NCBI GenBank assembly: GCA_963674745.2
Contig: CAXXDV010000001.1
Coordinates: forward strand, 928,001-992,000
Length of the DNA: 64,000 nucleotides
Direction: 5' to 3'
DNA from: Desulfosudaceae bacterium
Lineage (GTDB): Bacteria; Desulfobacterota; Desulfobacteria; Desulfobacterales; Desulfosudaceae
A program made the position numbers and the translations under genes. The notes beneath the pieces were generated by a model that did not search any database, was not told the DNA's origin, and saw only the letters and a program-made list of their open reading frames with translations. Below, in pieces: positions 12,561 to 30,290 of this stretch (its first letter is position 1; every line of letters begins with the position of its first letter).

Positions 12561-13025
12561 TTACTTTAGCCTGAAACTCCTTACGCATCTTAGCAATTCA
12601 CCTGAAACATTTTTCCACTGGGATTCACCGGCAGTCGCGGTCACAACAAACATGTTGCCGCCTTTTTTTTGAGCAACGCCGTACCAGTGCAGCAAACGGT
12701 TCTGAATTTTCCCGGTATATTCAAAAACTACCTTATCGGTGACAAAACTTTGTTGAATCTTTTTAAACCCCACCCGGCCAAACTGAGCCTCGGTCATGTC
12801 TGCGAATGACTTCAGGCTGTCCGGATATTCTTTTACGGACACATTGATGTTCGGCGCGAACCCGTCCGATACCGGCAGCAGCATTATCAGCATCCGGCGG
12901 CTTGAGTCGTATTGCACATTGCCGATTGAATTGATCGAGAACTGATCGTTTTCATATGCCCAGGCAGCATAAGAAACACCAAACAGCAACAGAACCATCA
13001 CTGAAATTCTGAAACACCTCTTCAT
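12561..13025 (-). CDS. secreted PsbP/DcrB-like protein
   Basis: Signal peptide ending AWA; FAPNINV and VVTATA patterns; GGAGG RBS before MKRCF. Confidence 0.6.
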   Translation of the reverse strand: MKRCFRISVMVLLLFGVSYAAWAYENDQFSINSIGNVQYDSSRRMLIMLLPVSDGFAPNINVSVKEYPDSLKSFADMTEAQFGRVGFKKIQQSFVTDKVVFEYTGKIQNRLLHWYGVAQKKGGNMFVVTATAGESQWKNVSGELLRCVRSFRLK

Positions 13026-13094
13026 AAATCCTCCCCGCCTGGAAATCGGCATCTGTAAATTTACAAATATTTTCTTTAACAGGCTAAACACCGC

Positions 13095-13850: not shown

Positions 13851-13880
13851 TTACTTTCCCGAATATTTATCGAATGCCCT

Positions 13881-13909
13881 GACTGTCTTTTTGAGCTTCC
13901 TTGTTGACC
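13881..13909 (-). other. truncated terminal attC (R''-L'' half only)
   Basis: Minus strand GGTCAAC just after the vapC stop, nearly complementary to the cassette start GTTGGCC; no second arm. Confidence 0.55.
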
Positions 13910-13911
13910 TA

Positions 13912-14295
13912 TTATTTCTTATAGGCGGGTTTTAAGCCGGCAAACATTGGATAATGATTTACATTAAGGGTTTTTAACTCGGCTTTTTCTGCGTCAGCTG
14001 TTGCAGCCAGGATGGCGTCCGCAAGCCCTATACCATGAGACTTGCCATAATCACGTTTGTAAAGTCCGCCTGTTTTTGCAATTTCAGCAGTCAAAGGCAC
14101 AACACGAAACAAGGAGATAAAATTCTCTAATACAAATAGCTCCGTATCGCCTTTTACACCAGCATACAATTCGGCAACAACAATTGGAGAGAGGATTAAT
14201 CGAGAAGAAAATTTATTTACAAACGCAACGGCCTTTTCTTGACCACGTAAAAAATCAACCAGCACATCAGTGTCAACAAGGATTGATTTTGGCAT
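13912..14295 (-). CDS. vapC: PIN-domain toxin VapC
   Basis: LVDTDV, AELYAG, GLADAILAATA and TLNVNHY PIN motifs. Confidence 0.95.
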   Translation of the reverse strand: MPKSILVDTDVLVDFLRGQEKAVAFVNKFSSRLILSPIVVAELYAGVKGDTELFVLENFISLFRVVPLTAEIAKTGGLYKRDYGKSHGIGLADAILAATADAEKAELKTLNVNHYPMFAGLKPAYKK

Positions 14296-14297
14296 AA

Positions 14298-14531
14298 TTA
14301 TTCTCTATCCCAATCTGACCTTAAGGCCCTGAAGGGAGGAAGATCTTTACGATTTTTCCAGATTCCAGCAGCCTCTTGTAATGCTGTTTTTTTCCGATTT
14401 TGCCCGGCCTGGTCGATAAGTCGATCAATTGCCTCGCGGATGAGCTCACTCTGTTTTTTACCAAGATCCCTTGCAATAACAGATAGTTCAGCCCGCTGTT
14501 TATCTGTCAGGTACACTTGTGTTCGAATCAT
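14298..14531 (-). CDS. vapB: CopG/RHH antitoxin (VapB)
   Basis: RTQVYL...SELIREAID ribbon-helix-helix directly upstream of vapC. Confidence 0.9.
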   Translation of the reverse strand: MIRTQVYLTDKQRAELSVIARDLGKKQSELIREAIDRLIDQAGQNRKKTALQEAAGIWKNRKDLPPFRALRSDWDRE

Positions 14532-15525: not shown

Positions 15526-18500
15526 ATGCAATACCTTCAAAAAACATTTAATTTGCTTCACTATACCTGTCTACGGATTGCTGTAATTATTTGTTTAGTT
15601 GCCTTGATTGGTTTTTATGGGTGTGGTGGCGGGAGTCACAGTTCATCCTCAACTCCCGGGGATGGGGATAATGGCAGCGATGAATCACCAACAGTGCAAG
15701 AAGGCGTGCTCATCGATAGTCCAGTAAAAGGTTTGAATTTTAAAACAAACTCTCAGGCGGGTATTACAGATGATAATGGTACTTTTTTATATTTGAATGG
15801 TGAAACGATCGAGTTTTTACTGGGTAGCCTTTCTTTGGGACAGACGATTGGTAAATTGCAACTATCTCCGATTGATCTCATAAACAGCATTGAAGGCGAC
15901 ACCAACCCTGCTGTAGTGAATATCTGCCGACTTTTACAGTCTCTTGATAGTGATAATAACCTGGATAACGGAATCCAGATTGATCCGCAGGTCATAAATC
16001 AAATTAACGGCCTGCAGACAGCTTTTAATTTTGACGCAGATTTTTTTTATGATGATGAGAATGTTCAAGCACTTTTTGATGCATTGAATGATGCCGGCGT
16101 CTTTGCTAATGGTCCCCGTAAATTAAAATCCAAGGCGCAAGCCATCACTCATTTACGAAAGAGTTTGGGTTTAGACGAATGTTCTCCTTGTGAAGGCAAG
16201 GTCAGCGAGTTGACCTTACAATATAATGGGCGTTCTAACCCCCGGGTTAAAATTGTACAAGAAGACGGAGAAGTGGTTTTTGATGGTGCGGTTTCTCCCA
16301 GTGAACAGTTTACTATTGCCGGCCGGGACGACAAAGGGACATTGAGTCCGTGGGTTATGGTTTATATAAATAATATTGAACAGTCCCAAGTCCATACCAG
16401 TTGTTCTGTCCCGATAGGGCCCGGACTGATTATCGGTGATTTTGAAATTATTTCCGGTTTCAGTCGTAATGGCGGTCCGCTTTGTCCGGTAGCTGAAGAT
16501 GATACCGGGGATAATGGTGATAACGACATTGATGGTGATAACGATCAACCGAACACATATTATCTTGATGCTGATGGAGACGGATACGGTAATCCCGGAA
16601 CTTACACTCAGGCAGTAACCGCGCCGGCCGGGTTTGTAAGTGACAACACGGACTGTAATGATAATGATGCAACCATAAATCCAGGCGCCGATGAGGTCTG
16701 TGGGGATGATATCGACAATAACTGTGACAATACGCTTGATGACGGTTGTGCATATTATTATCAGGATGCAGATCAAGACACTTATGGTGATTCCACAATG
16801 AGTGTTTTTGGATCTTCTGCGCCAGCGGGCTATGTGGACGACGGTACAGACTGCAATGACGAAAATTCCAATATCAATCCGGGCGCGACTGAAATTTGTG
16901 ATGGATTAGACAATGATTGTGATGGATTCATAGATGAGGGATGCCGTTATTATTACCGGGATTCGGATGGCGATGGATACGGTAATCCTGCGATAGTTAC
17001 TTTTGCACGTTTTGCTCCGGCTGGATATGTAATCAACGACACAGACTGCGATGATACTGATATAACGGCTTATCCCGGCGCAGATGAACTCTGTGACGGG
17101 AAAGACAACAACTGTGACGGTATAATTGATGAGCCGGCGGCGGGAACGGCGGATGTGACATTTGCCGGTCTTCTTGAAGAGATGGTCAATCGCGAAGGCT
17201 TCATGCTGAATACAGCGCCGGAATACACGTCGGCCATGTTCAGCAGTTATGACAGGGGCTCAATCCCGGAAGGGCGTGATAATTTGGATTTTTGCCAGTA
17301 CGTTCGCCAGGAGTTGATTGACGGCAGGAACGAGTGGGTCATGTTTGACCATGAGGGACCGGGGGCGGTGGTGCGTATCTGGCTGACCGCGCCATTATAC
17401 CAGGGTACCATCCGGATTTATCTGAATTCTTCAGACACGCCGGTCATTGAAGGCGCACCGGACGATATTGTGGGAAAACAGGCGCTGGTGGGAAGCCCCC
17501 TGTCCGCGGAACGCTCCCTCGGGATGAATCTCTATCTGCCGATTCCGTATGCCTGTCACTGCAAGATCACCTATGACGGCAACAACTGTTTTGAGACCTT
17601 AGACCCGGATGACCTCTTTTATTACCAGATCAACTATCGTACCTATGCAGCGGGTACCACGGTTCAATCGTTCTCCATGGACGATCTTACGACCTATGGC
17701 ACGGAAATTCAGAACGCTCAGGACCATCTGTCCACACCGTCAATGTCTGTTTCCGCACCGGACAGAACCATCAGCGGCACTCCGGGGATTGTGCTGGACC
17801 CCGGCGAAACGTTTGAACAGCCGGTTTCAGGCCCCGGGGCCATCACCCGGTTGCAAATCTCTTTAGACAGTGCCGCAGACGTAGATCAAGCCTTGCGGTC
17901 AACGGTTCTGGCGATCGATTTTGACGGTGTTACCAGGGTCTGGAGCCCTGTCGGCGACTTTTTCGGCTCGGGTCCGGGACGTTATCCTTATGTCACATGG
18001 TGGCAGGAAGTGTCCGGTGATAACACGATGACGTCACGATGGGTCATGCCGTTTCAGGCAACGGCCGTCATCCGGTTCATCAATCTCGGCAGCCAGCAGG
18101 TTACGGTTTCTCTGAAGGATACAGCGGTGATAGACGATGCCTGGCGGGAGGGGTATTCCATGTATTTTCATGCCACATGGCACAGCCAGCGCAATATCCC
18201 GGTTACAGCGTTTACAGGCAGTGATTGGAATTATGTGACCATCAGCGGGAAGGGCCTGTATATGGGGGATACCCTTACGGTATATAACCGTGCTTCTGTA
18301 TGGTGGGGAGAGGGAGATTCCAAGATATGGGTGGATGGCGATACATTCCCGTCATTTTTCGGGACCGGAACCGAGGATTATTACGGATATGCGTTCTGCG
18401 GGGATGGCGGTACTTATGAGGCGCCGTTTCATGCCCAGCCCCGGGGAGAGGGCGATTCGGATAACATCGGCTATACCACAAACACGCGCACACGCAGCCT

Positions 18501-18666
18501 GGACGCGATACCCTTTACCAGCAGGCTGCAGGTCGATATGGAACTCTGGCACTGGGCGACAACAGGGATGGACTACGCGGTGACCTGCTACTGGTACGCC
18601 TTTGACGGGGCGACATCAAACCGGGTTGCCGAGCCGGATGAAGCCGCCGCCCAGCTTGTTGAGTAG
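15526..18666 (+). CDS. large lipoprotein with MopE-like Cys/Asp repeats and a C-terminal GH172 (DUF2961) domain
   Basis: Lipobox FYG-C; repeated DxDGDGYG...DCND...PGAxExC-DxxDNxCD units; WGEGD and GTGTEDYYG motifs. Confidence 0.85.
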   Translation: MQYLQKTFNLLHYTCLRIAVIICLVALIGFYGCGGGSHSSSSTPGDGDNGSDESPTVQEGVLIDSPVKGLNFKTNSQAGITDDNGTFLYLNGETIEFLLGSLSLGQTIGKLQLSPIDLINSIEGDTNPAVVNICRLLQSLDSDNNLDNGIQIDPQVINQINGLQTAFNFDADFFYDDENVQALFDALNDAGVFANGPRKLKSKAQAITHLRKSLGLDECSPCEGKVSELTLQYNGRSNPRVKIVQEDGEVVFDGAVSPSEQFTIAGRDDKGTLSPWVMVYINNIEQSQVHTSCSVPIGPGLIIGDFEIISGFSRNGGPLCPVAEDDTGDNGDNDIDGDNDQPNTYYLDADGDGYGNPGTYTQAVTAPAGFVSDNTDCNDNDATINPGADEVCGDDIDNNCDNTLDDGCAYYYQDADQDTYGDSTMSVFGSSAPAGYVDDGTDCNDENSNINPGATEICDGLDNDCDGFIDEGCRYYYRDSDGDGYGNPAIVTFARFAPAGYVINDTDCDDTDITAYPGADELCDGKDNNCDGIIDEPAAGTADVTFAGLLEEMVNREGFMLNTAPEYTSAMFSSYDRGSIPEGRDNLDFCQYVRQELIDGRNEWVMFDHEGPGAVVRIWLTAPLYQGTIRIYLNSSDTPVIEGAPDDIVGKQALVGSPLSAERSLGMNLYLPIPYACHCKITYDGNNCFETLDPDDLFYYQINYRTYAAGTTVQSFSMDDLTTYGTEIQNAQDHLSTPSMSVSAPDRTISGTPGIVLDPGETFEQPVSGPGAITRLQISLDSAADVDQALRSTVLAIDFDGVTRVWSPVGDFFGSGPGRYPYVTWWQEVSGDNTMTSRWVMPFQATAVIRFINLGSQQVTVSLKDTAVIDDAWREGYSMYFHATWHSQRNIPVTAFTGSDWNYVTISGKGLYMGDTLTVYNRASVWWGEGDSKIWVDGDTFPSFFGTGTEDYYGYAFCGDGGTYEAPFHAQPRGEGDSDNIGYTTNTRTRSLDAIPFTSRLQVDMELWHWATTGMDYAVTCYWYAFDGATSNRVAEPDEAAAQLVE

Positions 18667-21109: not shown

Positions 21110-21234
21110 TATGAACGTCCGCCACCAATGGCAGCCAGGGCTTCCACTGACTTGTTTAAAGGTTTCGGTTGTTCAGTACCCCCGATTTTTCAAAACCCGA
21201 GTGTCCTGGCTGTCCACTTGAGCTTGATTTCTAC
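21110..21234 (-). other. attC site (125 bp; R'' variant GTAGAAA)
   Basis: CAGCCAGGAC / GCCCTGGCTG stem; related in sequence to the attC at 29683. Confidence 0.75.
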
Positions 21235-21898: not shown

Positions 21899-23760
21899 TT
21901 ACGAAATAATCAGATCAACGCTTTCTTTTACTGATCGATATTGTGGCTCTATGCCTGCTTTGTTTAACACCTCTTGCGCTTCAGGCGGAAGCTGGCGGGT
22001 ATCTTCAAAAAGGTGATTGTCATAAAGCTGATTGCTTTTGTCCCGCCAGAAAAATCGATATCGACCCTGGTCAAAGTCCCGGTACGATAATTGATTCGAC
22101 CAGTTGTTGTAGATTTTGGTATTGGTTGACATCACAAGAGCGACCCATGCTCGGGAGAGTCGATTCCACCAAACCGATGACGGCATATTAATGGATACGT
22201 TGTTGTAAATTTCCGCCTTGTCGACAAAAACATCCAAATATATACCGGCGTTACTTGGATTTATGCCGACGCCGTCAATATAGTTGTGGTGAATTTTAGT
22301 GAAACCCGCATTGGCGCATGAGACATACAGCGCGCCGAAATCCGTCAACCCCGATTGGCCGACTTCACTGGTTTTATTCCATGCGTACTCGATATTCCCG
22401 GCGTGCCCTCTCCAGCCAAGATAACGCCAACTGTTACGGATCGCCTGAATCGGCGTGTGCCTGATTTCATTGTTGATAAAACGGAAATTGCGGGTGAATT
22501 CAGAATAACTGACCCCTGGAGAAGGGGCGTCGATACCGGTCACCCGGATATAATTATTCTTGATTTCAACCCCGTCAAAGAACTTGTCTTGATTTTCCGG
22601 CAAGACACCTTTTTTGCTCTGATTGCTCACCACAAGATTTGTCTGGTTCAAGGAGATGGCCGATCGTGAAATATCCCCGAAACCGTTCCCGATTATTTGA
22701 ATCCCGGTGCCCTGGATATCAAAGTGGACCGCGTCATACCCCATATGAAAGAAAAAGTTGTCTTGAAGGAGAATGTTGCGGCCCGCATTGACTTGAATGG
22801 CGCTTTCCGGTTTGGGCGTAACCGCCCTGGTCGGCTCCGTGGGAAAACCGGCGGTCACCCCCATTTTCGTCCCTTTGCTGTATTGAAAACAAAGCCCCTG
22901 GATAGCGATATTTTGAACGGGCCGGGTCATGGTTCCATCCAAGAGAAAAAAGTTTTCAAATCCGAATAAATGAGGACCGAATTTTGGTTAAAACCGGCTT
23001 CCCTGTCCGGCTTGAAGTAAACCACAGACCCTGCTTTATCGAGATACCATTCCCCTTCCCCGGTAAGCAGTTCATAGGCGTTTTCTATGGCATAATCGGC
23101 TGTCCATATCTCAATTCCATTTAACAGCCCGAATAAGCTAAAGGGCTCCATCACCCCTAGTGCGGTTGTCGGCACCAGATAGGTATCGAGTTCTTCGGGA
23201 TCCAGTTGAATCTCATTAGCGGTGATTTTATGGATCCTGGCAGGAATCTGACGCCACATCATTTTTTTGGTAACGATTATTTCATTCAGATTCTGCCAGT
23301 TTTTGATATCCGGCGCATCCTTTGTCAGCTTCAGCCCCTTGCGGCTGTTTTTAAATCCCGGAGGATTCCAGCCGGACCAGGCTCTTGTCAAGCGCCGGTT
23401 TCCGAACCACAGGTGCTCAAAATCGCTGTTCAGAGGAACGGATGCTTTCCAGATATTTTTGGTCTTGTCGTGGATTTCCCAATTCGTTATATACTTTTCC
23501 CCTGTCAAAACAGGTTTCGCGTTTTCCGCGCTCTGCCAACGCACCCAAAATCCATTCTGACCGGAATCTTCAACCTGAATCCGGATTGGTTCGTTTAAAT
23601 AATAACACCCATCCTCAAAATAAATATTTATATCTGAAGTCATGCTTCTGCCGGCCGTTTTAATAAGATCAGTGACCTTTTCAAGAGAACATGGATTGCC
23701 TCTCTTTCCATCCCCTTCCCCATTGGGCGAAACATAAAAATTATTCATCGTTTTTCTCAT
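21899..23760 (-). pseudogene. right-handed beta-helix (GH141/pectin-lyase-like) gene split by a frameshift into 22927-23760 and 21899-22942
   Basis: FYVSPNG...G.P, ENAYELL..EGEWYLD, then PVQNIAIQGL.FQY and DFGALY...GIYLD; the frame changes at a T6 tract near 22950. Confidence 0.8.
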
Positions 23761-23765
23761 TTGTC

Positions 23766-23825
23766 GGCTAACGGCGCTAATAAGTCGCGCGGCTGTAAAC
23801 GGTACGGTTCAGGGCTTTGTTGGCA
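23766..23825 (-). other. chimeric/non-pairing attC (60 bp)
   Basis: R'' TGCCAAC and R' GTTAGCC are intact but the inner arms are not complementary. Confidence 0.65.
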
Positions 23826-23857
23826 TCTCATGTAAATATTGCGGATGTAGGAGCTCA

Positions 23858-25327
23858 TCACTCTTTCCCTAGCGATACCAGTTCAATCGTCTCGGCATAC
23901 GATCGTTTGAGAATTTCGTCACCTGCCGTGGCTAGCTCGGCCCAACCTTCGTCCGCAATTCTGCCCATGTGTTCAAGCTGCAGTTGGGAACGATCGAAGA
24001 GCCAGTACTTCAGTGATGGCAAGAGGTAGCGAACCAGTGCCAACCATTCCGGGTAATTGATGGCAAGGGGGTTCCCTTGATACAAGGCCACCTTGCCCGC
24101 GTTTCCGGCACAAGCAACGGCGTGTGCGGAAAGAAGCATGGACCTGTACTTCGGGTTCTTGGCCAGAAGGAACGGGACTTCACCGTTCTCAGCGTAGTGC
24201 CGGATCATGAGATAGCCTCTCAGAATGATCTCAATGACCGCTGGCGTGATACCCATCACAAGGAAGTGCCGGAAATCGTAACCGTTCGTGTACATCCATC
24301 TGGCCACCTGCCCTACCGTCCGTCCTCCTTTCCCAAGATTACCTGTGTTGATGCCCTGAAAAAGGGTGAAGAATGGAGGAGGAATGCCCGGAGGCGTCGC
24401 GACATCAGAAATCAGATGGCCCATTTGTTTCAGAATCGCTGTGATCAGACCCACCGGCTCTAGGTTGGTCCAGACTTGGCCCTGTGCGAGTTCATGAACG
24501 CCAGAAAGCTTTTCGTACGAAAACCCCGTAATCGTACCTCTCATGATGTCGAGCACCCCGAAGATGAAGCCAAGGACGGGATCATGTCCCAAAGTCTGGA
24601 ACCTGTGGGTCGTCCCCCCTGCACCCTTCAGCCTTTCCAGTCTTCCAGCCTTTTCGAAGACCGTTCCGTCGTAAGGAACTCTGCATTTCGACTCCAGACT
24701 GCGCGCCCATCTGGCGAACCAATCCTGTCGTCCGCCCTGCTTCCGGGAATCGTACTTCTTCAGCCATTCCGTAATAGGGCTCGCCTGCTGCCCCGAATAC
24801 TGTCCCGTGTTGAAGCTGCGAGGGATCTTCACCAAAAGGAAATCAGTCAGACTCGCCAGCACCCCGGCAGTGCCGACAAACGAGTAGTCCCACTTGTCCC
24901 ACAGGTACTGTGTCCCGTACTCCTCCTGCTTCAGGCGCTCAAGATCGTCATTGCACAAGAACGCTTCCCAAGGCAGGGAACAGTCCAAATCGTGCTCTGC
25001 GCAATATGCTACACTGTCACGGACGAACTGGTCCCAATCGACAAAGGCTAGGACAGAGGTTTCCCGTGCGACAGCCTCGCGCCGTCGCTGATAGATGGTT
25101 TCGATTTCCCCTGGATCCCAATCCGCCATGTCGGCGGCGCAAAGGAGCCCGCTCTCCTGCTCGATGTCGTCCATGAGGCCTGACAACACTTGAAGCTGGT
25201 CAGCCTGTCCGTTCGCTTCTCCGAGCGCCGGAGCCAAAGCGTCCAGTCGTCCGCTCGCCTGATCGAGCACATGCCGCTGACCTTGGAGTACGGCCCGTAA
25301 CGAATGGAGATCCGACGCGGTCGTCAT
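23858..25327 (-). CDS. hypothetical protein with N-terminal coiled coil and hydrophobic segments
   Basis: 489-aa ORF overlapping the upstream gene by ATGA; PYD, HRFQTLGHDP and HLISDVAT motifs. Confidence 0.85.
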   Translation of the reverse strand: MTTASDLHSLRAVLQGQRHVLDQASGRLDALAPALGEANGQADQLQVLSGLMDDIEQESGLLCAADMADWDPGEIETIYQRRREAVARETSVLAFVDWDQFVRDSVAYCAEHDLDCSLPWEAFLCNDDLERLKQEEYGTQYLWDKWDYSFVGTAGVLASLTDFLLVKIPRSFNTGQYSGQQASPITEWLKKYDSRKQGGRQDWFARWARSLESKCRVPYDGTVFEKAGRLERLKGAGGTTHRFQTLGHDPVLGFIFGVLDIMRGTITGFSYEKLSGVHELAQGQVWTNLEPVGLITAILKQMGHLISDVATPPGIPPPFFTLFQGINTGNLGKGGRTVGQVARWMYTNGYDFRHFLVMGITPAVIEIILRGYLMIRHYAENGEVPFLLAKNPKYRSMLLSAHAVACAGNAGKVALYQGNPLAINYPEWLALVRYLLPSLKYWLFDRSQLQLEHMGRIADEGWAELATAGDEILKRSYAETIELVSLGKE

Positions 25328-26196
25328 GCAACAGCCCTCGCTTCCCTTTGACGCAGCACCTGTTTGAGGGAGGTGAGTCGCTCCGTCAGAATTGCGATCG
25401 CCGTTCGGTTGGCTTCGGACTTCGCCGCCTCTGCTTCCAGCGATTCAATTCTGTCGATTATTTGGGCAATGGCTTCCTGAAGGTTCTTGATGACTAGTTG
25501 GGCCTTCCGCTCCTGCGCTGCGCGAAGCTTCTCTTCCTTGACCTTCCTACTGTCCCCGAGAAGCCACGTTGTGCCCAGAAACACAGCTGTTCCGAGCACT
25601 ACCGCGACTCCAATACCAGGCACCATGCCAAACCCCAAACCGAGAGCGGCAAGACCCCCGGTAATGCCCGCTGCGCTCAGACCGATGATGGTACCGCTGA
25701 AGTACACTGCGGCAATGGGCACTCCCACCGCGCCGAGTCCTGCTGCCGCGGCCTTGATGGCCTTCTCCGCGGCATTGTTGTCAAGTCCCTCGCGAGCAAC
25801 GCGGCGAGCCTCCTTCACAAAATTGATGATCGCCTTCCGCTGGTCTTCGGTGACCCGCAGTCGTGTGCACACGGATGAGAGGAAATCCTTCTCCTCTTCT
25901 TCCATAATGTCGTCAGCCAATATGGTCTCCACCACGGCTACGATCACGGCATATCGCAGTTCGTCACGTGCGTTAACCAGTTGGTCCAGACAAGAATCGA
26001 GATTAGGTGGCGTCAGTACAAACCCTTGAACCTGCTTGCGATGGGCTTCGTCCAGCGCCTCGAGGTCGAGCGAGCCGAAAATCGCTACCATCTCTTCCCT
26101 GGAGGCGTTTCCATCGGCGGCCGATGCAGCGAAACTCAAGCCGTAGAAGGCTATCAACTGGTCCTGCGGGATTGTGCTCATGTCGAACTTGGCCAT
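25324..26196 (-). CDS. TerB-like domain protein with Gly-rich TM region and coiled coil
   Basis: AADGNASREE and LADDIMEEEE paired TerB motifs; GLSAAGITGGLAALG; AAGGA RBS. Confidence 0.8.
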   Translation of the reverse strand: MAKFDMSTIPQDQLIAFYGLSFAASAADGNASREEMVAIFGSLDLEALDEAHRKQVQGFVLTPPNLDSCLDQLVNARDELRYAVIVAVVETILADDIMEEEEKDFLSSVCTRLRVTEDQRKAIINFVKEARRVAREGLDNNAAEKAIKAAAAGLGAVGVPIAAVYFSGTIIGLSAAGITGGLAALGLGFGMVPGIGVAVVLGTAVFLGTTWLLGDSRKVKEEKLRAAQERKAQLVIKNLQEAIAQIIDRIESLEAEAAKSEANRTAIAILTERLTSLKQVLRQREARAVA

Positions 26197-26240
26197 TGCG
26201 GTGTTCCTTTCTCATGGGTTGATTCGTCAATCTTGTCTAA

Positions 26241-26345
26241 TGCCAACATCCACGGTGTGGGGCCGCAAGGGGAACGTGCCACCGCAAAAAACTCATTATT
26301 GGAAAAAAGTGGTAAGAGCCAAAGCCGGACGTCCCTTGCGGTCCC
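26241..26345 (-). other. attC lacking its R''-L'' end
   Basis: GGGACCGCAAGGG / CCCTTGCGGCCC stem and R' GTTGGCA, fused directly to a gene fragment. Confidence 0.7.
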
Positions 26346-26572
26346 TGCCAACGCACCAAAAATCCATTCTGACCGGAGTCTTCACCCTGAATCCGGATTG
26401 GTTTATTTAAATAATAACACCCATCCCCAAAATAAATATTTATATCAGAAGTCATGCTTCTGCCGGCCGTTTTAATAAGATCAGTGACCCTCTCAAGAGA
26501 ACAGGGATTGCCTTTCTTTCCATCCCCTTCCCCATTGGGCGAAACATAAAAATTATTCATCGTTTTTCTCAT
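26345..26572 (-). pseudogene. truncated duplicate of the 5' end of the beta-helix gene
   Basis: 26345-26584 aligns without gaps to 23533-23772; both start MRKTMNNFYVSPNGEGDGK. Confidence 0.9.
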
Positions 26573-26577
26573 TTATC

Positions 26578-26638
26578 GGCGAACGGCTCTGGTGTGGGGC
26601 GCGCGGCTGTTTACGCGTCCCACACCAGATGGTTCGGT
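26578..26638 (-). other. attC site (61 bp)
   Basis: ACCGAAC-CATCT-GGTGTGGGACGCG...CGCGCCCCACACC-AGAGCC-GTTCGCC. Confidence 0.85.
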
Positions 26639-26646
26639 GTCTTCCT

Positions 26647-27318
26647 TTAAGGACTCACTCGACTTGCGAATTCCAGAACGCCTTGGCACATCATGCTCAC
26701 CTGATCGGTATTGTAGTCGTTATACTTACCATGAGCCGCGTGATTACGAAGGTCCAACCAAGCAGTAACATTCTTTTGTTCTAATTTCCCATATACACCG
26801 GCTTTTGCAAGGTCTGCGTTCATAGCATCAGCCTTTTTAGGCATCTTCTTCCTCCCTGCTAGCAATTCCGTATCGATTGAATTTGCTTGACATAACTGCC
26901 TAAGATGTTCTTCAAGCACACTTCCCACTATAACGGCACTTGCATCCTTATATCCCTCCGAAAGCAAGTATTCCGCCATTTCAAGAAAATCAGCAAATAT
27001 CTCGGCGGCGGCTATAGTTTTTGTCTGAATTACCCAGCCACCGGCAATTTCATTTCGTGCGGCTGTCATCACACCTATTGCATTTTTTAAATCGGATGAG
27101 TAGCCGACTGTGGCTTTATCTATTATATCTTCATAGTAGGGATGTTCTTTTCCGAAAATGCCAAGAAGAAAAGAAAGTATCGCTGCCCGAATAGATCGGA
27201 AACTACCCTCATCAACATATTTGAGATTGTGCGCTCTGGAAGACTTTTCCGTCTGTAGAAGATCAGTAGCCTGTTTTATTAAATCATCCGCCCTTGCGAC
27301 AATATCTGATAATTTCAA
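26647..27318 (-). CDS. HEPN (DUF4145-like) domain protein
   Basis: ASAVIVGSVLEEHLR and LRNHAAHG (Rx4H); AGGAGG RBS favours the TTG start at 27318. Confidence 0.8.
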   Translation of the reverse strand: MKLSDIVARADDLIKQATDLLQTEKSSRAHNLKYVDEGSFRSIRAAILSFLLGIFGKEHPYYEDIIDKATVGYSSDLKNAIGVMTAARNEIAGGWVIQTKTIAAAEIFADFLEMAEYLLSEGYKDASAVIVGSVLEEHLRQLCQANSIDTELLAGRKKMPKKADAMNADLAKAGVYGKLEQKNVTAWLDLRNHAAHGKYNDYNTDQVSMMCQGVLEFASRVSP

Positions 27319-27333
27319 AAGCACCTCCTATGA

Positions 27334-27463
27334 ACCCAACGGGAAGCTGAGGGGCCGGGCGTCTTGAACTCGGAGCCTCAGATAAATCCTTTATTTTGCT
27401 AAATCATATGTTTCAGGGAAAACCGCGCGTTAAGCCCGGTCCAACTCAAGAGTTTTGTTCGGG
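27334..27463 (-). other. attC site (130 bp)
   Basis: CCCGAAC-AAAAC-TCTTGAGTTGGACCGGGC...GCCCGGCCCCTCAGC-TTCCC-GTTGGGT. Confidence 0.85.
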
Positions 27464-28348
27464 TTTAAGGTCATTCTTTAGTATTTTGAAAGGATTGCTA
27501 TTTAGTTCCCATTGCTCAATTTCTTGATACAAGTTTGTCAAAACAAAATCATTTATTGAGTAGGCTAAACGGAAAAGTCTGTGGATATTGCCATTTTCTG
27601 CAATGGAAGCCTGTAATGTTGCAAACAATTTCCGCAGACTTAATGCAAATAGACCGAGCAAATCATGTCCGCATGAAAGTTCCAATTTATCGAGATCTTC
27701 TTCATTCTCCATAACTTGATTTATAAGAGTTATAATTTCTGCATCTTGAGGCAAGTCCAATTCATAGTTATGTTTTGCAGCATTTTGTTGAGTAATGTCC
27801 TGCACATATCGCACCATTTTGTCTATATCTATTTCAAGGGTACTTTTGTTCGTGAATTTTTGATAATTTAATTCGTGAAACACAAAATGAAAATTGTTTC
27901 TCTGTGATATAAGCCTGAAGATTCCTATCATACTAGATTTCGAATAAAAGAAGTCTTTCAAATTGTCATATCCAATTATTTTTCTTGGCGAACAATACTC
28001 AGAAACTACTCGACTAAATGCATTGCTATTAAAAAGCATACCTTCAACGTCGTGAGTATCGGACACTAAAATATTGTCAGGCAAATCAGGAAGGCCTTCA
28101 ACCCGCCAGAAATCGGCATCAACTATTGCCAATATCCCCTTTCCTGCTGAATCATTCACTATCTCGATTGCAGAAATTGCATTATCTTTACCGTGAGCTA
28201 TAATGATATGCGTAAAATGAGAATCGAAAAAATTTTCAAATAACATAGAATCATTGTTGCCTTCGAGAATAACAATCGTATCAGGAAAAGCAGTTCGAAC
28301 CATTTCCACTTCGGTAGCTATAGATTCTCCTGTAACATTCTCAAGCAT
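27446..28348 (-). CDS. ariB: DUF4435 / TOPRIM-like protein (PARIS AriB-like)
   Basis: ILEGNND, IVDADF, HDVE and CGHDL motifs; overlaps the ATPase gene. Confidence 0.8.
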   Translation of the reverse strand: MLENVTGESIATEVEMVRTAFPDTIVILEGNNDSMLFENFFDSHFTHIIIAHGKDNAISAIEIVNDSAGKGILAIVDADFWRVEGLPDLPDNILVSDTHDVEGMLFNSNAFSRVVSEYCSPRKIIGYDNLKDFFYSKSSMIGIFRLISQRNNFHFVFHELNYQKFTNKSTLEIDIDKMVRYVQDITQQNAAKHNYELDLPQDAEIITLINQVMENEEDLDKLELSCGHDLLGLFALSLRKLFATLQASIAENGNIHRLFRLAYSINDFVLTNLYQEIEQWELNSNPFKILKNDLKPEQNS

Positions 28349-29660
28349 TTCCCCCTCCCTTTGGCAAAGAAACCATTAATGAACGTCGGTCATGAATAAT
28401 AGAAGGAGAATGGGTGGCGATGAGAAAATCAAGATCAGCCAATTTTGATATTCGCTCAATATCATTTAAAAATTTATGTTGCCATGTTACATGAAGAGAC
28501 AACTCAGGCTCATCTATCATAATGAATGATTTCTCTGGCACTTTGAATAAAAGTTCATACGCCAAAACTAATTCATGCTGTTCGCCAGAAGAAAGACATT
28601 TAAGAGGGACATTTTTGCCAGAATCTAATTTAAAGACAAATCCATCAGATTTGCTTAAGGAGAATGATTTATACAGGAAGCGAGAGTTGATAATATCCTT
28701 GAACAATTCAACCTTTTTCATTAATGGATCGAACACCTTAAGTTTTTCATCGATATCATTCAAATAATACCATAGTAATTTTAAATCGTTAGACTCTATA
28801 TTGCTGGTGGGCAGGGAGACTTGTTCTTCTTCATCGATCAATCCAGCTTTCATTAATCGTCCCCTATAAGAACTTTGATTTTGGTATTTTTCTCTAATAT
28901 TCTTTTCGGTAGCTTCCTTTGGGGCGCCAGATTCAAGCAATCTATGGGGGAATGTTCTATCCAATGATGCAGCGACAGAACCTGATTGCCGTAATGTTTC
29001 TTGAAGCTTCTCGGCCATTTCAACCGAGTATTTCTCCACAGTATTTCTTGTTCGTACCTGGCTTCTTGGTGATCTATATGATTCTTCATGGCTCAGAACC
29101 AACAATCGCTGAGTCTGAATAAAATATGTTTTCAAATTTGATAAAATATCAATAATCTCCTTTGGCATTGAATCATGAGAGCCTTTAGTAAAAGGGAGGT
29201 CATTGCCATATCTGTATAAAACCTCTTCTAATGAGATCATTTCTCCTGTACTAGTATCAAACCATCTCCTAGGTCCAGTTCTGTCTAAGTGGGGGATGAC
29301 ATCGTCAATTATATGAATAGGGAAGTCTTTTCCTAATTCCTCTTGCGTTAAGGAAAAATCAATAGAGCCCCTCTGGAGAACGTTTCTTCCTTTTTTTAAC
29401 TTCAGAGACAAGGTCATATTGCCGTTCTTTTTAATTTCCAATTTCTGTTTATTTGTAAAAGTTATCAGAACTTTGGAGAATGGCACTGTTTTAATGACAT
29501 GAAATTTTTTGCTGAAAATATCTTTTATAAGCTGTAATATTGTGGTTTTCCCAACGCCGTTAGGTCCGTGAATAATTGTTATTCTATCAGAGACTTTGAG
29601 CTTGATGTCGTGATCAAACATCCCAAATATTTTCATTATTTCAATTCGTTCAATTCGCAT
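28341..29660 (-). CDS. ariA: ABC-type ATPase AAA_15/AAA_21 (PARIS AriA-like)
   Basis: Walker A GPNGVGKT, signature LSSGEQ, Walker B IDEPE and H-loop ATHS. Confidence 0.85.
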   Translation of the reverse strand: MRIERIEIMKIFGMFDHDIKLKVSDRITIIHGPNGVGKTTILQLIKDIFSKKFHVIKTVPFSKVLITFTNKQKLEIKKNGNMTLSLKLKKGRNVLQRGSIDFSLTQEELGKDFPIHIIDDVIPHLDRTGPRRWFDTSTGEMISLEEVLYRYGNDLPFTKGSHDSMPKEIIDILSNLKTYFIQTQRLLVLSHEESYRSPRSQVRTRNTVEKYSVEMAEKLQETLRQSGSVAASLDRTFPHRLLESGAPKEATEKNIREKYQNQSSYRGRLMKAGLIDEEEQVSLPTSNIESNDLKLLWYYLNDIDEKLKVFDPLMKKVELFKDIINSRFLYKSFSLSKSDGFVFKLDSGKNVPLKCLSSGEQHELVLAYELLFKVPEKSFIMIDEPELSLHVTWQHKFLNDIERISKLADLDFLIATHSPSIIHDRRSLMVSLPKGGGNA

Positions 29661-29682: not shown

Positions 29683-29811
29683 CCCGAACGGCGGCAGCCA
29701 ATGGGAGCCAGGGCTTCCACTGATTTGCCTTAAAGACGGTTAATATTCAATTTTTTCAACTTTTCAAATCCCGAATGCCCTAGCTATCTTTTGGGCTGCC
29801 TTGGGTTAGCC
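29683..29811 (-). other. attC site (129 bp)
   Basis: GGCTAAC...CAGCCCAA..AGCTAGGGC / GCCCTGGCT..TTGGCTG-CCGCC-GTTCGGG. Confidence 0.85.
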
Positions 29812-30166: not shown

Positions 30167-30290
30167 GGCTAACGTCCGCCACCACCGGCGAGCAGGGTTT
30201 GCGGACTTCTTAAATGTTAGTTCAACACCACACTATGCAAAAACTAAGGCAGGGCGCCCCTGCGAGTCTGTGTGAGTGGCGTTGTTATGC
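30167..30290 (-). other. attC site (124 bp)
   Basis: GCATAAC-AAC-GCCACTCAC...GCAGGG / CCCTGC...GTGGTGGC-GGAC-GTTAGCC. Confidence 0.8.

Follow-up and report, generated by a model that had tools for sequence, protein, structure and literature searches.

A bnzA-bnzB gene pair of the Bunzi anti-phage system, probably one unit of an integron-like cassette row, in a Desulfosudaceae bacterium

Introduction

Bunzi is a validated defence system and one of two that include TerB proteins (Millman et al. 2022, 10.1101/2022.05.11.491447). According to the accessible text of that preprint, it consists of a TerB protein with predicted transmembrane helices and a lipid-interacting domain, together with the product of a second gene, and its mechanism is given there as unknown, with “membrane surveillance” proposed (10.1101/2022.05.11.491447). 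Later texts, in their accessible parts, still call the mechanism unclear, and no mechanistic study of Bunzi turned up in the literature searched. Here, we describe a gene pair, bnzA-bnzB, from a stretch of 64,000 nucleotides (nt) of a Desulfosudaceae bacterium (assembly GCA_963674745.2, contig CAXXDV010000001.1, positions 928,001 to 992,000), which is called the window in the following. With good confidence, we regard the pair as a Bunzi anti-phage system, carried as a single unit of an integron-like cassette row whose members share one orientation, with PARIS as its immediate neighbour.

An initial annotation of the window, made from the letters of the sequence, had described the pair as a membrane-acting defence module, either a relative of Bunzi or a new system. 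A further property, protection by Bunzi from the jumbo phages AR9 and PBS1, was considered and dropped, as the statement in the accessible text of the preprint concerns a dynamin system (10.1101/2022.05.11.491447).

Results and Discussion

Identity and organization of the gene pair

The two genes are located on the minus strand, as are all features given below unless stated otherwise. The upstream gene, bnzA (25324-26196), is an open reading frame (ORF) of 290 amino acids (aa) and is preceded by an AAGGA ribosome-binding site 8-9 nt ahead of its ATG. The downstream gene, bnzB (23858-25327), encodes 489 aa. The stop of bnzA and the start of bnzB have an ATGA in common (GCATGACG), which bears out the coupling of the two genes claimed at the outset.

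Both proteins match the PADLOC models of Bunzi, and their order and orientation are those expected. For BnzB (PDLC03834), the match of the 489-aa protein has an E-value of 1.1e-74, its residues 7-465 covering profile positions 9-500 of 504, and the 290-aa protein matches BnzA (PDLC03833) with an E-value of 3.3e-34, residues 97-283 against positions 255-446 of 544. Because of these matches, and with the pair recurring in related loci (see below), the choice left by the initial annotation falls on a Bunzi relative, and the pair is, as judged by its sequence, a further member of the already described Bunzi defence system. What speaks against this assignment is the partial match of BnzA, with profile positions 1-254 and 447-544 unmatched. 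Orthologues of the same length (from the related loci L001 and L015) match the model over residues 9-283, so that the profile ends left unmatched are a feature of longer family members; the BnzA of the window aligns end to end with 26 orthologous upstream genes.

The remaining model searches concerned other systems. The C-terminal half of BnzA gave weak PADLOC matches to the dynamin-like proteins LeoBC (E 2.1e-6) and LeoB (E 6e-4). No PADLOC match to the Shango models was obtained for bnzA or bnzB, the BnzA of the window does not match the PADLOC model PDC-M09A, and an NCBIfam search added nothing on the pair.

Conservation of the pair and exchange of its head domain

A scan of representative genomes for relatives of BnzB yielded 78 loci, including members of the cyanobacteria, Chloroflexota, Actinomycetota, Planctomycetota, Cloacimonadota, and Myxococcota as well as a Planococcus. 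A BnzA detectable by phmmer is encoded directly upstream on the same strand in 61 of these loci, and a short upstream protein that matches only the PADLOC BnzA model in two more. The partner is a PDC-M09A-like protein in eight loci; in another four, BnzB carries a long N-terminal extension and has no BnzA, three of these extensions showing an amphipathic-looking repeat, and the last three loci lie at a contig edge or are fragments. Both ORFs were called in 59 of the 61 BnzA-BnzB loci, and all 59 are co-oriented with A upstream of B. The stop of A is located between -120 and +150 nt from the start of B in 55 cases, the other four being frameshifts or artefacts of ORF calling. Hence, the two genes, whose separation in relatives the initial annotation had named as evidence against itself, are conserved as a pair across phyla.

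This conservation extends unevenly over the upstream protein. The TerB part was covered in 51 upstream proteins by phmmer matches, and the C-terminal part alone was matched in 11 rows from 10 loci, seven of these rows being complete proteins with lengths of 175-191 aa. Where the partner is PDC-M09A-like, the B protein still matches only BnzB among the PADLOC models. The PDC-M09A-like partners match no Pfam family and their N-terminal head is not TerB, but they share homology with BnzA in the Gly-zipper and the coiled coil (hhalign probability 95.4%, E 1.7e-8, 195 columns). As the head may be a TerB domain, a different one, or missing, what stays constant beside BnzB is the module of Gly-zipper and coiled coil, and the head is exchangeable. 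This arrangement was not found stated in the literature searched.

A separate observation concerns three of the cyanobacterial loci (L020, L021, and L023), in which relatives of BnzB with 511-624 aa are encoded without BnzA upstream. Their N-termini consist of tandem repeats of the type VVETKEAVTNTT.QATQTVVDK, and the protein of L021 weakly matches ZorA models. These repeats may represent a fused lipid-binding head.

Anatomy of BnzA

The N-terminal part of BnzA contains a TerB-like domain (residues 16-122; 25831-26151), which was also claimed in the initial annotation. The Pfam TerB score of the protein itself is 19.0 bits (E 0.0018) and remains below the cut-off of 24.4, which counts against the assignment. 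Three orthologues of the same length (L015, L033, and L001) clear this cut-off with 46.2, 27.7, and 26.3 bits, and a profile of 27 members of the BnzA family has the TerB structure 2ou3 as its best match in the PDB (E 1.6e-4). D28 and E35 are invariant among 27 BnzA sequences. On these comparisons, the TerB domain holds at the level of the family and is marginal for the BnzA of the window alone.

The adjoining Gly-rich hydrophobic region (residues 145-216; 25549-25764) is the best-conserved part of the BnzA family and agrees with the Gly-zipper region of the initial annotation. Its 72 residues are unbroken, rich in Gly and Ala, reach 1.6-2.12 in Kyte-Doolittle windows, and show a repeated small-xxx-small spacing. 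The region is a probable membrane hairpin, with the reservation that insertion into the membrane is judged by hydropathy alone. It is followed by a helical or coiled-coil region at the C-terminus (residues 217-287; 25336-25548), a charged tail that lies inside the PADLOC matches to both BnzA and LeoBC. The coiled coil annotated here finds its sole basis in the composition and in keratin-type matches of the profile to the PDB. As regards the lipid-interacting domain mentioned for Bunzi, an amphipathic-repeat extension at the N-terminus or a weak match to apolipoprotein was seen in some relatives; the amphipathic-repeat extension is missing from the BnzA of the window.

Anatomy of BnzB

BnzB belongs to a large unannotated family. 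Of 7999 candidates scored in a word-indexed search, 442 matched at E<=1e-5, every one of them named “hypothetical”; the two closest relatives stand at 84% and 83%. In an exhaustive search, representative clusters numbered 838 at E<=1e-3, 433 at <=1e-10, and 172 at <=1e-30. The BnzB of the window is without any Pfam family, and no Pfam family recurs among 97 diverse members, in which three families were hit by one member each (E 0.0035-0.01). Searching the sequences of the PDB with a BnzB profile returned only coiled-coil noise (haemagglutinin HA2, E at least 0.013), and a look-up in the ESM Atlas only unnamed clusters.

In an alignment of 120 diverse BnzB sequences, with identities down to about 25%, seven columns are invariant, namely D220, H241, H248, D249, H304, D308, and P318. 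Nearly invariant are R242, D260, S307, T311, Y350, H354, N409, K412, N419, and N424, with R242 being fully invariant in the set of 97 sequences. The two His/Asp motifs pointed out in the initial annotation are HRFQTLGHDP (residues 241-250; 24578-24607), with H241, H248, and D249 invariant, and HLISD (residues 304-308; 24404-24418), with H304 and D308 invariant and S307 nearly so. As they hold five of the seven invariant residues, both motifs mark the signature of the BnzB family.

The AlphaFold2 model of BnzB calculated from the alignment of 120 sequences reached a predicted local distance difference test (pLDDT) value of 92.7 and a predicted template modelling (pTM) score of 0.83, compared with a pLDDT of 49 from 20 close sequences. 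In this model, the conserved core, built of helices and two beta-hairpins, lies between two long helices (residues 4-57 and 425-476). A hydrophobic helix at residues 145-166 (24830-24895) is, on the basis of hydropathy and the model, a candidate membrane anchor; its family-average hydropathy over the 120 sequences is 2.11, in line with the hydrophobic helices noted initially. Weaker hydrophobic helices of BnzB bear conserved polar residues. Foldseek searches with the model found no fold relative in the PDB (best E 0.49, template modelling score at most 0.16) or in BFVD (best E 0.058). BnzB is presumed to be the effector of the system.

Defence context of the pair

The initial annotation had placed the pair near HEPN and PARIS cassettes. 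PARIS is clearly present: AriB (27446-28348; 300 aa, DUF4435) matches its PADLOC model with E 5.5e-16 and AriA (28341-29660; 439 aa, AAA_15) with E 2.6e-24, or 3.5e-21 for the full-length model. The two genes overlap by 8 nt and have a GC content of 0.33-0.38. The HEPN part of the claim stays below threshold. The protein of 225 aa in question (26647-27324) is a possible HEPN protein whose sub-threshold matches to DUF4145 and to two HEPN families (E 0.05-0.15) are confined to the C-terminal part; it gave no match to PADLOC or the PDB. The C-terminal part contains the sequence RNHAAH, in keeping with an R-x4-H motif.

The neighbours of related loci were analysed in 19 of 40 loci with long flanks, picked for taxonomic spread and comprising 107 ORFs of at least 200 aa. 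At least one neighbour with a PADLOC match at E<=1e-10 was found in ten of the 19 loci, six of which are specific: PDC-S03 (twice), BrxA, PDC-S37/Hhe, DISARM, and a Planococcus island in which AbiO/Nhi, an RT-associated SLATT, and PDC-S68 are located beside Bunzi. Against a defence role, it must be said that the other nine loci have no such neighbour at this threshold, and that the counts come without a background control. The neighbourhood of the related loci is therefore supportive, not decisive. As a side observation, PDC-S03 adjoins Bunzi in a Phormidium (L004:7414-8061, E 1.2e-99) and in a member of the Chloroflexaceae (L011:3053-3784, E 1e-26).

The nine loci without a defence-type neighbour are also compatible with a module for membrane stress or housekeeping, which would mend or reshape the membrane during stress of a chemical or ionic kind and would have no part in phage defence. 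TerB proteins, to which the head of BnzA is related, belong to the world of tellurite and stress resistance, and the weak matches of the C-terminal half of BnzA to LeoBC and LeoB would suit such a function as well. Nevertheless, we consider this explanation improbable. Both genes match models derived from an experimentally validated defence system, as far as the accessible text of the preprint describes it (10.1101/2022.05.11.491447), PARIS is immediately adjoining, and DISARM, BrxA, PDC-S03, and PDC-S37/Hhe are neighbours at other loci. In addition, the patchy spread across phyla on small variable loci suits an accessory defence gene.

Apart from PARIS, the same island harbors a PIN-domain gene (13912-14295; Pfam E 2.1e-16). 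A short ORF upstream of it (about 14300-14530) reads like a ribbon-helix-helix antitoxin, and the two are probably a pair of the VapBC type.

Cassette arrays often carry pairs of the toxin-antitoxin type. It may be asked whether bnzA-bnzB is an addiction pair stabilising the array, with BnzB as a membrane toxin and BnzA as its cognate inhibitor, and kept because its loss would kill the cell, not for any effect on phages. The tight operon with its translational overlap, the strictly conserved pairing, and the PIN-domain gene in the island would all be in keeping with this, and the idea is compatible with, rather than exclusive of, defence by abortive infection. However, proteins of 290 and 489 aa with a sensor-like variable head are unlike the small type II pairs, and the four cyanobacterial and Chloroflexi loci with an N-terminally extended BnzB and no BnzA upstream are hard to square with an obligate antitoxin. 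We therefore assign little probability to an addiction pair and retain the reading as a Bunzi defence system.

Cassette boundaries and the integron question

Between about 18.9 and 30.2 kb, every gene is located on the minus strand. The core at the 5′ boundary of the Bunzi unit, TGTTGGCAT (26240-26248), is R′-like, contains GTTGGCA, and has an exact inverted partner at the 3′ end of the unit. The repeat of GTTGGCA (26247-26241) and TGCCAAC (23825-23819) reported in the initial annotation is present and exact, and extends to a perfect inverted repeat of 9 nt, TGTTGGCAT/ATGCCAACA. GTTGGCA differs from GTTRRRY at two positions. The 3′ boundary comprises about 60 nt (23766-23826), from the R″-like ATGCCAAC to GTTAGCC, the R′-like core that opens the next cassette.

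These boundaries were assessed by a test of junction pairs, which asked whether a GTTNNNN in one intergenic junction is matched by its exact reverse complement in the junction that follows downstream. Exact inverted cores were found in three of ten consecutive junction pairs, those of the Bunzi unit, of a GH141-like gene, and of a GNAT gene. The mean over 5000 junction shuffles was 0.13, and three such pairs were reached in none of them. With one mismatch allowed, four pairs were observed against a shuffle mean of 1.58, which is not distinctive. A strong attC-like hairpin, closed by CGAAC/GTTCG, is located 3′ of the gene for the 225-aa protein (26575-26640; -20.9/-24.8 kcal/mol, z -5.05/-6.36).

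Several results weigh against an integron cassette proper. The site 3′ of bnzB folds no better than shuffled sequences (z +1.07 on the minus and -0.26 on the plus strand) and is therefore a degenerate or atypical attC. No integrase family was detected by Pfam among 59 ORFs of the window selected from those with at least 110 aa. Given the unstructured 3′ site and the lack of an integrase among these ORFs, mobility as an integron cassette is a possibility only. Further, a strict attC scan (R″/R′ of at least 6/7, with an energy density filter) found no site inside the island and five elsewhere. An ORF-anchored scan for core sites delivered only single-gene cassettes (GNAT and 12561-13091) and two AT-rich matches that are likely due to chance. 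The best description is that of an integron-like array, or of an attC cluster that lacks its integrase; within it, the boundaries of the Bunzi unit are of the cassette type, with a degenerate 3′ site; the integrase may be located farther off than the window. Of the cassette proposed initially, the inverted cores stand up to the shuffles, but neither an integrase in the scanned ORFs nor a folded 3′ site accompanies them.

The Bunzi unit is bracketed by a direct repeat of 268 nt with 91% identity, which consists of a junction and the first about 79 codons of the GH141-like gene. The upstream copy (26336-26603) belongs to a truncated GH141-like gene (ORF 26237-26572), and the downstream copy (23524-23791) heads a longer one (22927-23760). 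Inside both GH141-like copies, GTTGGCA occurs exactly at the end of the similarity (26352-26346 and 23540-23534). The 98 nt between the GTTGGCA at 26352-26346 and that at 26247-26241 hold an inverted repeat, and their end resembles the right half of the hairpin site next to them, with CCCCACACC, six bases, and GTT in this order. The end of the upstream copy at an internal GTTGGCA suggests a recombination at a secondary site together with a partial duplication.

The longer GH141-like or beta-helix gene is itself split into two ORFs that overlap by 16 nt, 22927-23760 (277 aa) and 21899-22942 (347 aa), with weak Pfam matches to GH141_M (E 7e-4) and Beta_helix (E 0.49). The split may be a frameshift or mark a pseudogene. 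It is highly improbable that the pair is a decaying, non-functional insert left by rearrangements in a scrambled region, as the two repeat copies with their truncated upstream member, the unfolded 3′ site, and the split neighbouring gene might suggest, for both ORFs are intact and of full length compared with their orthologues, every family-invariant residue is retained, and the ribosome-binding site and the ATGA coupling are preserved.

Elsewhere in the array, a family of 42-nt repeats (21113-21154, 29686-29727, and 30170-30211) is found just 3′ of three minus-strand genes, with 62-86% identity to the reference copy, and every copy has a GTT core close to its end. Two stop codons are followed by another shared element (13871-13891 and 29772-29792). 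Both kinds of element are probably junction or recombination sites of the array.

The base composition gives a complementary view of the island. The GC content of bnzA-bnzB is 0.53-0.60, compared with 0.44-0.49 in the left neighbour and 0.33-0.46 in the right neighbours, so that the pair is indeed richer in GC than its surroundings, as first annotated. It does not stand out from the backbone, whose GC content is 0.52-0.59 beyond the limits of the variable island (about 12.4-30.9 kb), and the atypical sequences are therefore the neighbours and not the Bunzi pair. A scan for promoters and terminators gave a signal at background level.

Two further genes were recorded. A flanking xylulokinase shows 74-77% identity to proteins from genome bins of Thermodesulfobacteriota, which is probably also the lineage of the host. 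The sole large gene of the island on the plus strand (15526-18666) encodes a protein of 1046 aa with DUF2961, three metal-binding motifs of the MopE type, and DUF7467, and has internal repeats spaced by 198 nt.

A possible mode of action

The anatomy of bnzA and bnzB, combined with the literature on TerB and glycine zippers, allows a mechanism to be proposed. BnzA would be anchored in the cytoplasmic membrane by its putative glycine-zipper hairpin and would restrain BnzB, with the helical tails as the probable means. The TerB head could sense a disturbance, linked to the membrane or to ions, that phage entry or late infection brings about. A release or rearrangement would then activate BnzB, and the activated BnzB might damage the membrane, by which the infection would be aborted. 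That the system acts on the membrane is something we infer, as the literature does.

For the activity of BnzB, the invariant set of Asp and His residues brings a metal-dependent hydrolase to mind, a possibility that we put forward tentatively. The conserved polar residues in hydrophobic helices of BnzB led to the idea of an ion-conducting assembly, which we hold to be unlikely and the less attractive of the two. On a more general level, Bunzi might be regarded less as a TerB system than as a platform of three parts. BnzB would be the first representative of an undescribed effector fold that is associated with the membrane and has an invariant Asp/His site, possibly as an enzyme that depends on a metal and acts on the membrane. 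A conserved adaptor of Gly-zipper and coiled coil would couple BnzB to its partner. The heads would be interchangeable and consist of TerB, of the head found in PDC-M09A, or of an amphipathic-repeat extension that is fused to BnzB, or would be missing. Such a platform could travel as an integron-type cassette. Taken as a whole, this proposal is somewhat doubtful.

Comparison with known systems

As an annotation, the result is routine, since standard models of defence systems name Bunzi at once. Its value lies in leads on a validated system with an unsolved mechanism. These are a confident model of BnzB for which no fold relative is known, a few invariant Asp and His residues as targets for mutation, the evidence that the TerB head can be dispensed with, the adaptor of glycine zipper and coiled coil being what accompanies BnzB throughout, and a minimal BnzA of 290 aa that would make a convenient construct. 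Furthermore, the locus provides another example of stacked neighbouring defence cassettes (Bunzi, a possible HEPN, and PARIS) in an integron-like array, here from an environmental anaerobe.

Among the described systems, Shango shares with the pair a TerB domain in a defence system, carried by SngA according to the accessible text (10.1101/2022.05.11.491447). The partners of SngA are a helicase and an ATPase, which are nucleic-acid enzymes, and no BnzB-like protein is among them. Dionysus (DinA/DinB/DinC) is similar in that a TerB-like protein occurs with membrane proteins and that membrane surveillance has been proposed, as stated in the accessible part of its description (10.1101/2025.09.30.679545). 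In contrast to Bunzi, this description gives three genes, with TerB as a separate protein (DinB) and with an effector, DinC, that is a pore-forming toxin with four transmembrane segments; the comparison is one of descriptions only, a relation in sequence being neither tested nor seen. The likeness to Eleos concerns the LeoBC model, of which positions 372-567 of 601 are matched by the hydrophobic and helical C-terminal half of BnzA. Unlike LeoBC, BnzA has no GTPase domain, and the weak match may reflect a shared composition of membrane paddle and stalk.

The candidate system PDC-M09, for which PADLOC has a model of protein A, is similar in that a protein of the BnzB family follows a PDC-M09A-like protein in the eight loci mentioned above. 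It differs from the pair by the N-terminal head, which is neither TerB nor a member of any Pfam family. The closest likeness is that to Bunzi itself, which in the accessible text of its description has a TerB and transmembrane protein followed by a second protein of about 500 aa (Millman et al. 2022, 10.1101/2022.05.11.491447). Both PADLOC models are matched by the pair in this order and on one strand. The system of the window differs by its probable host lineage, Thermodesulfobacteriota, by its minimal BnzA, which, like even its close orthologues, leaves the first about 150 and the last about 90 of the 544 model positions unmatched, and by its location in an integron-like row of cassettes.

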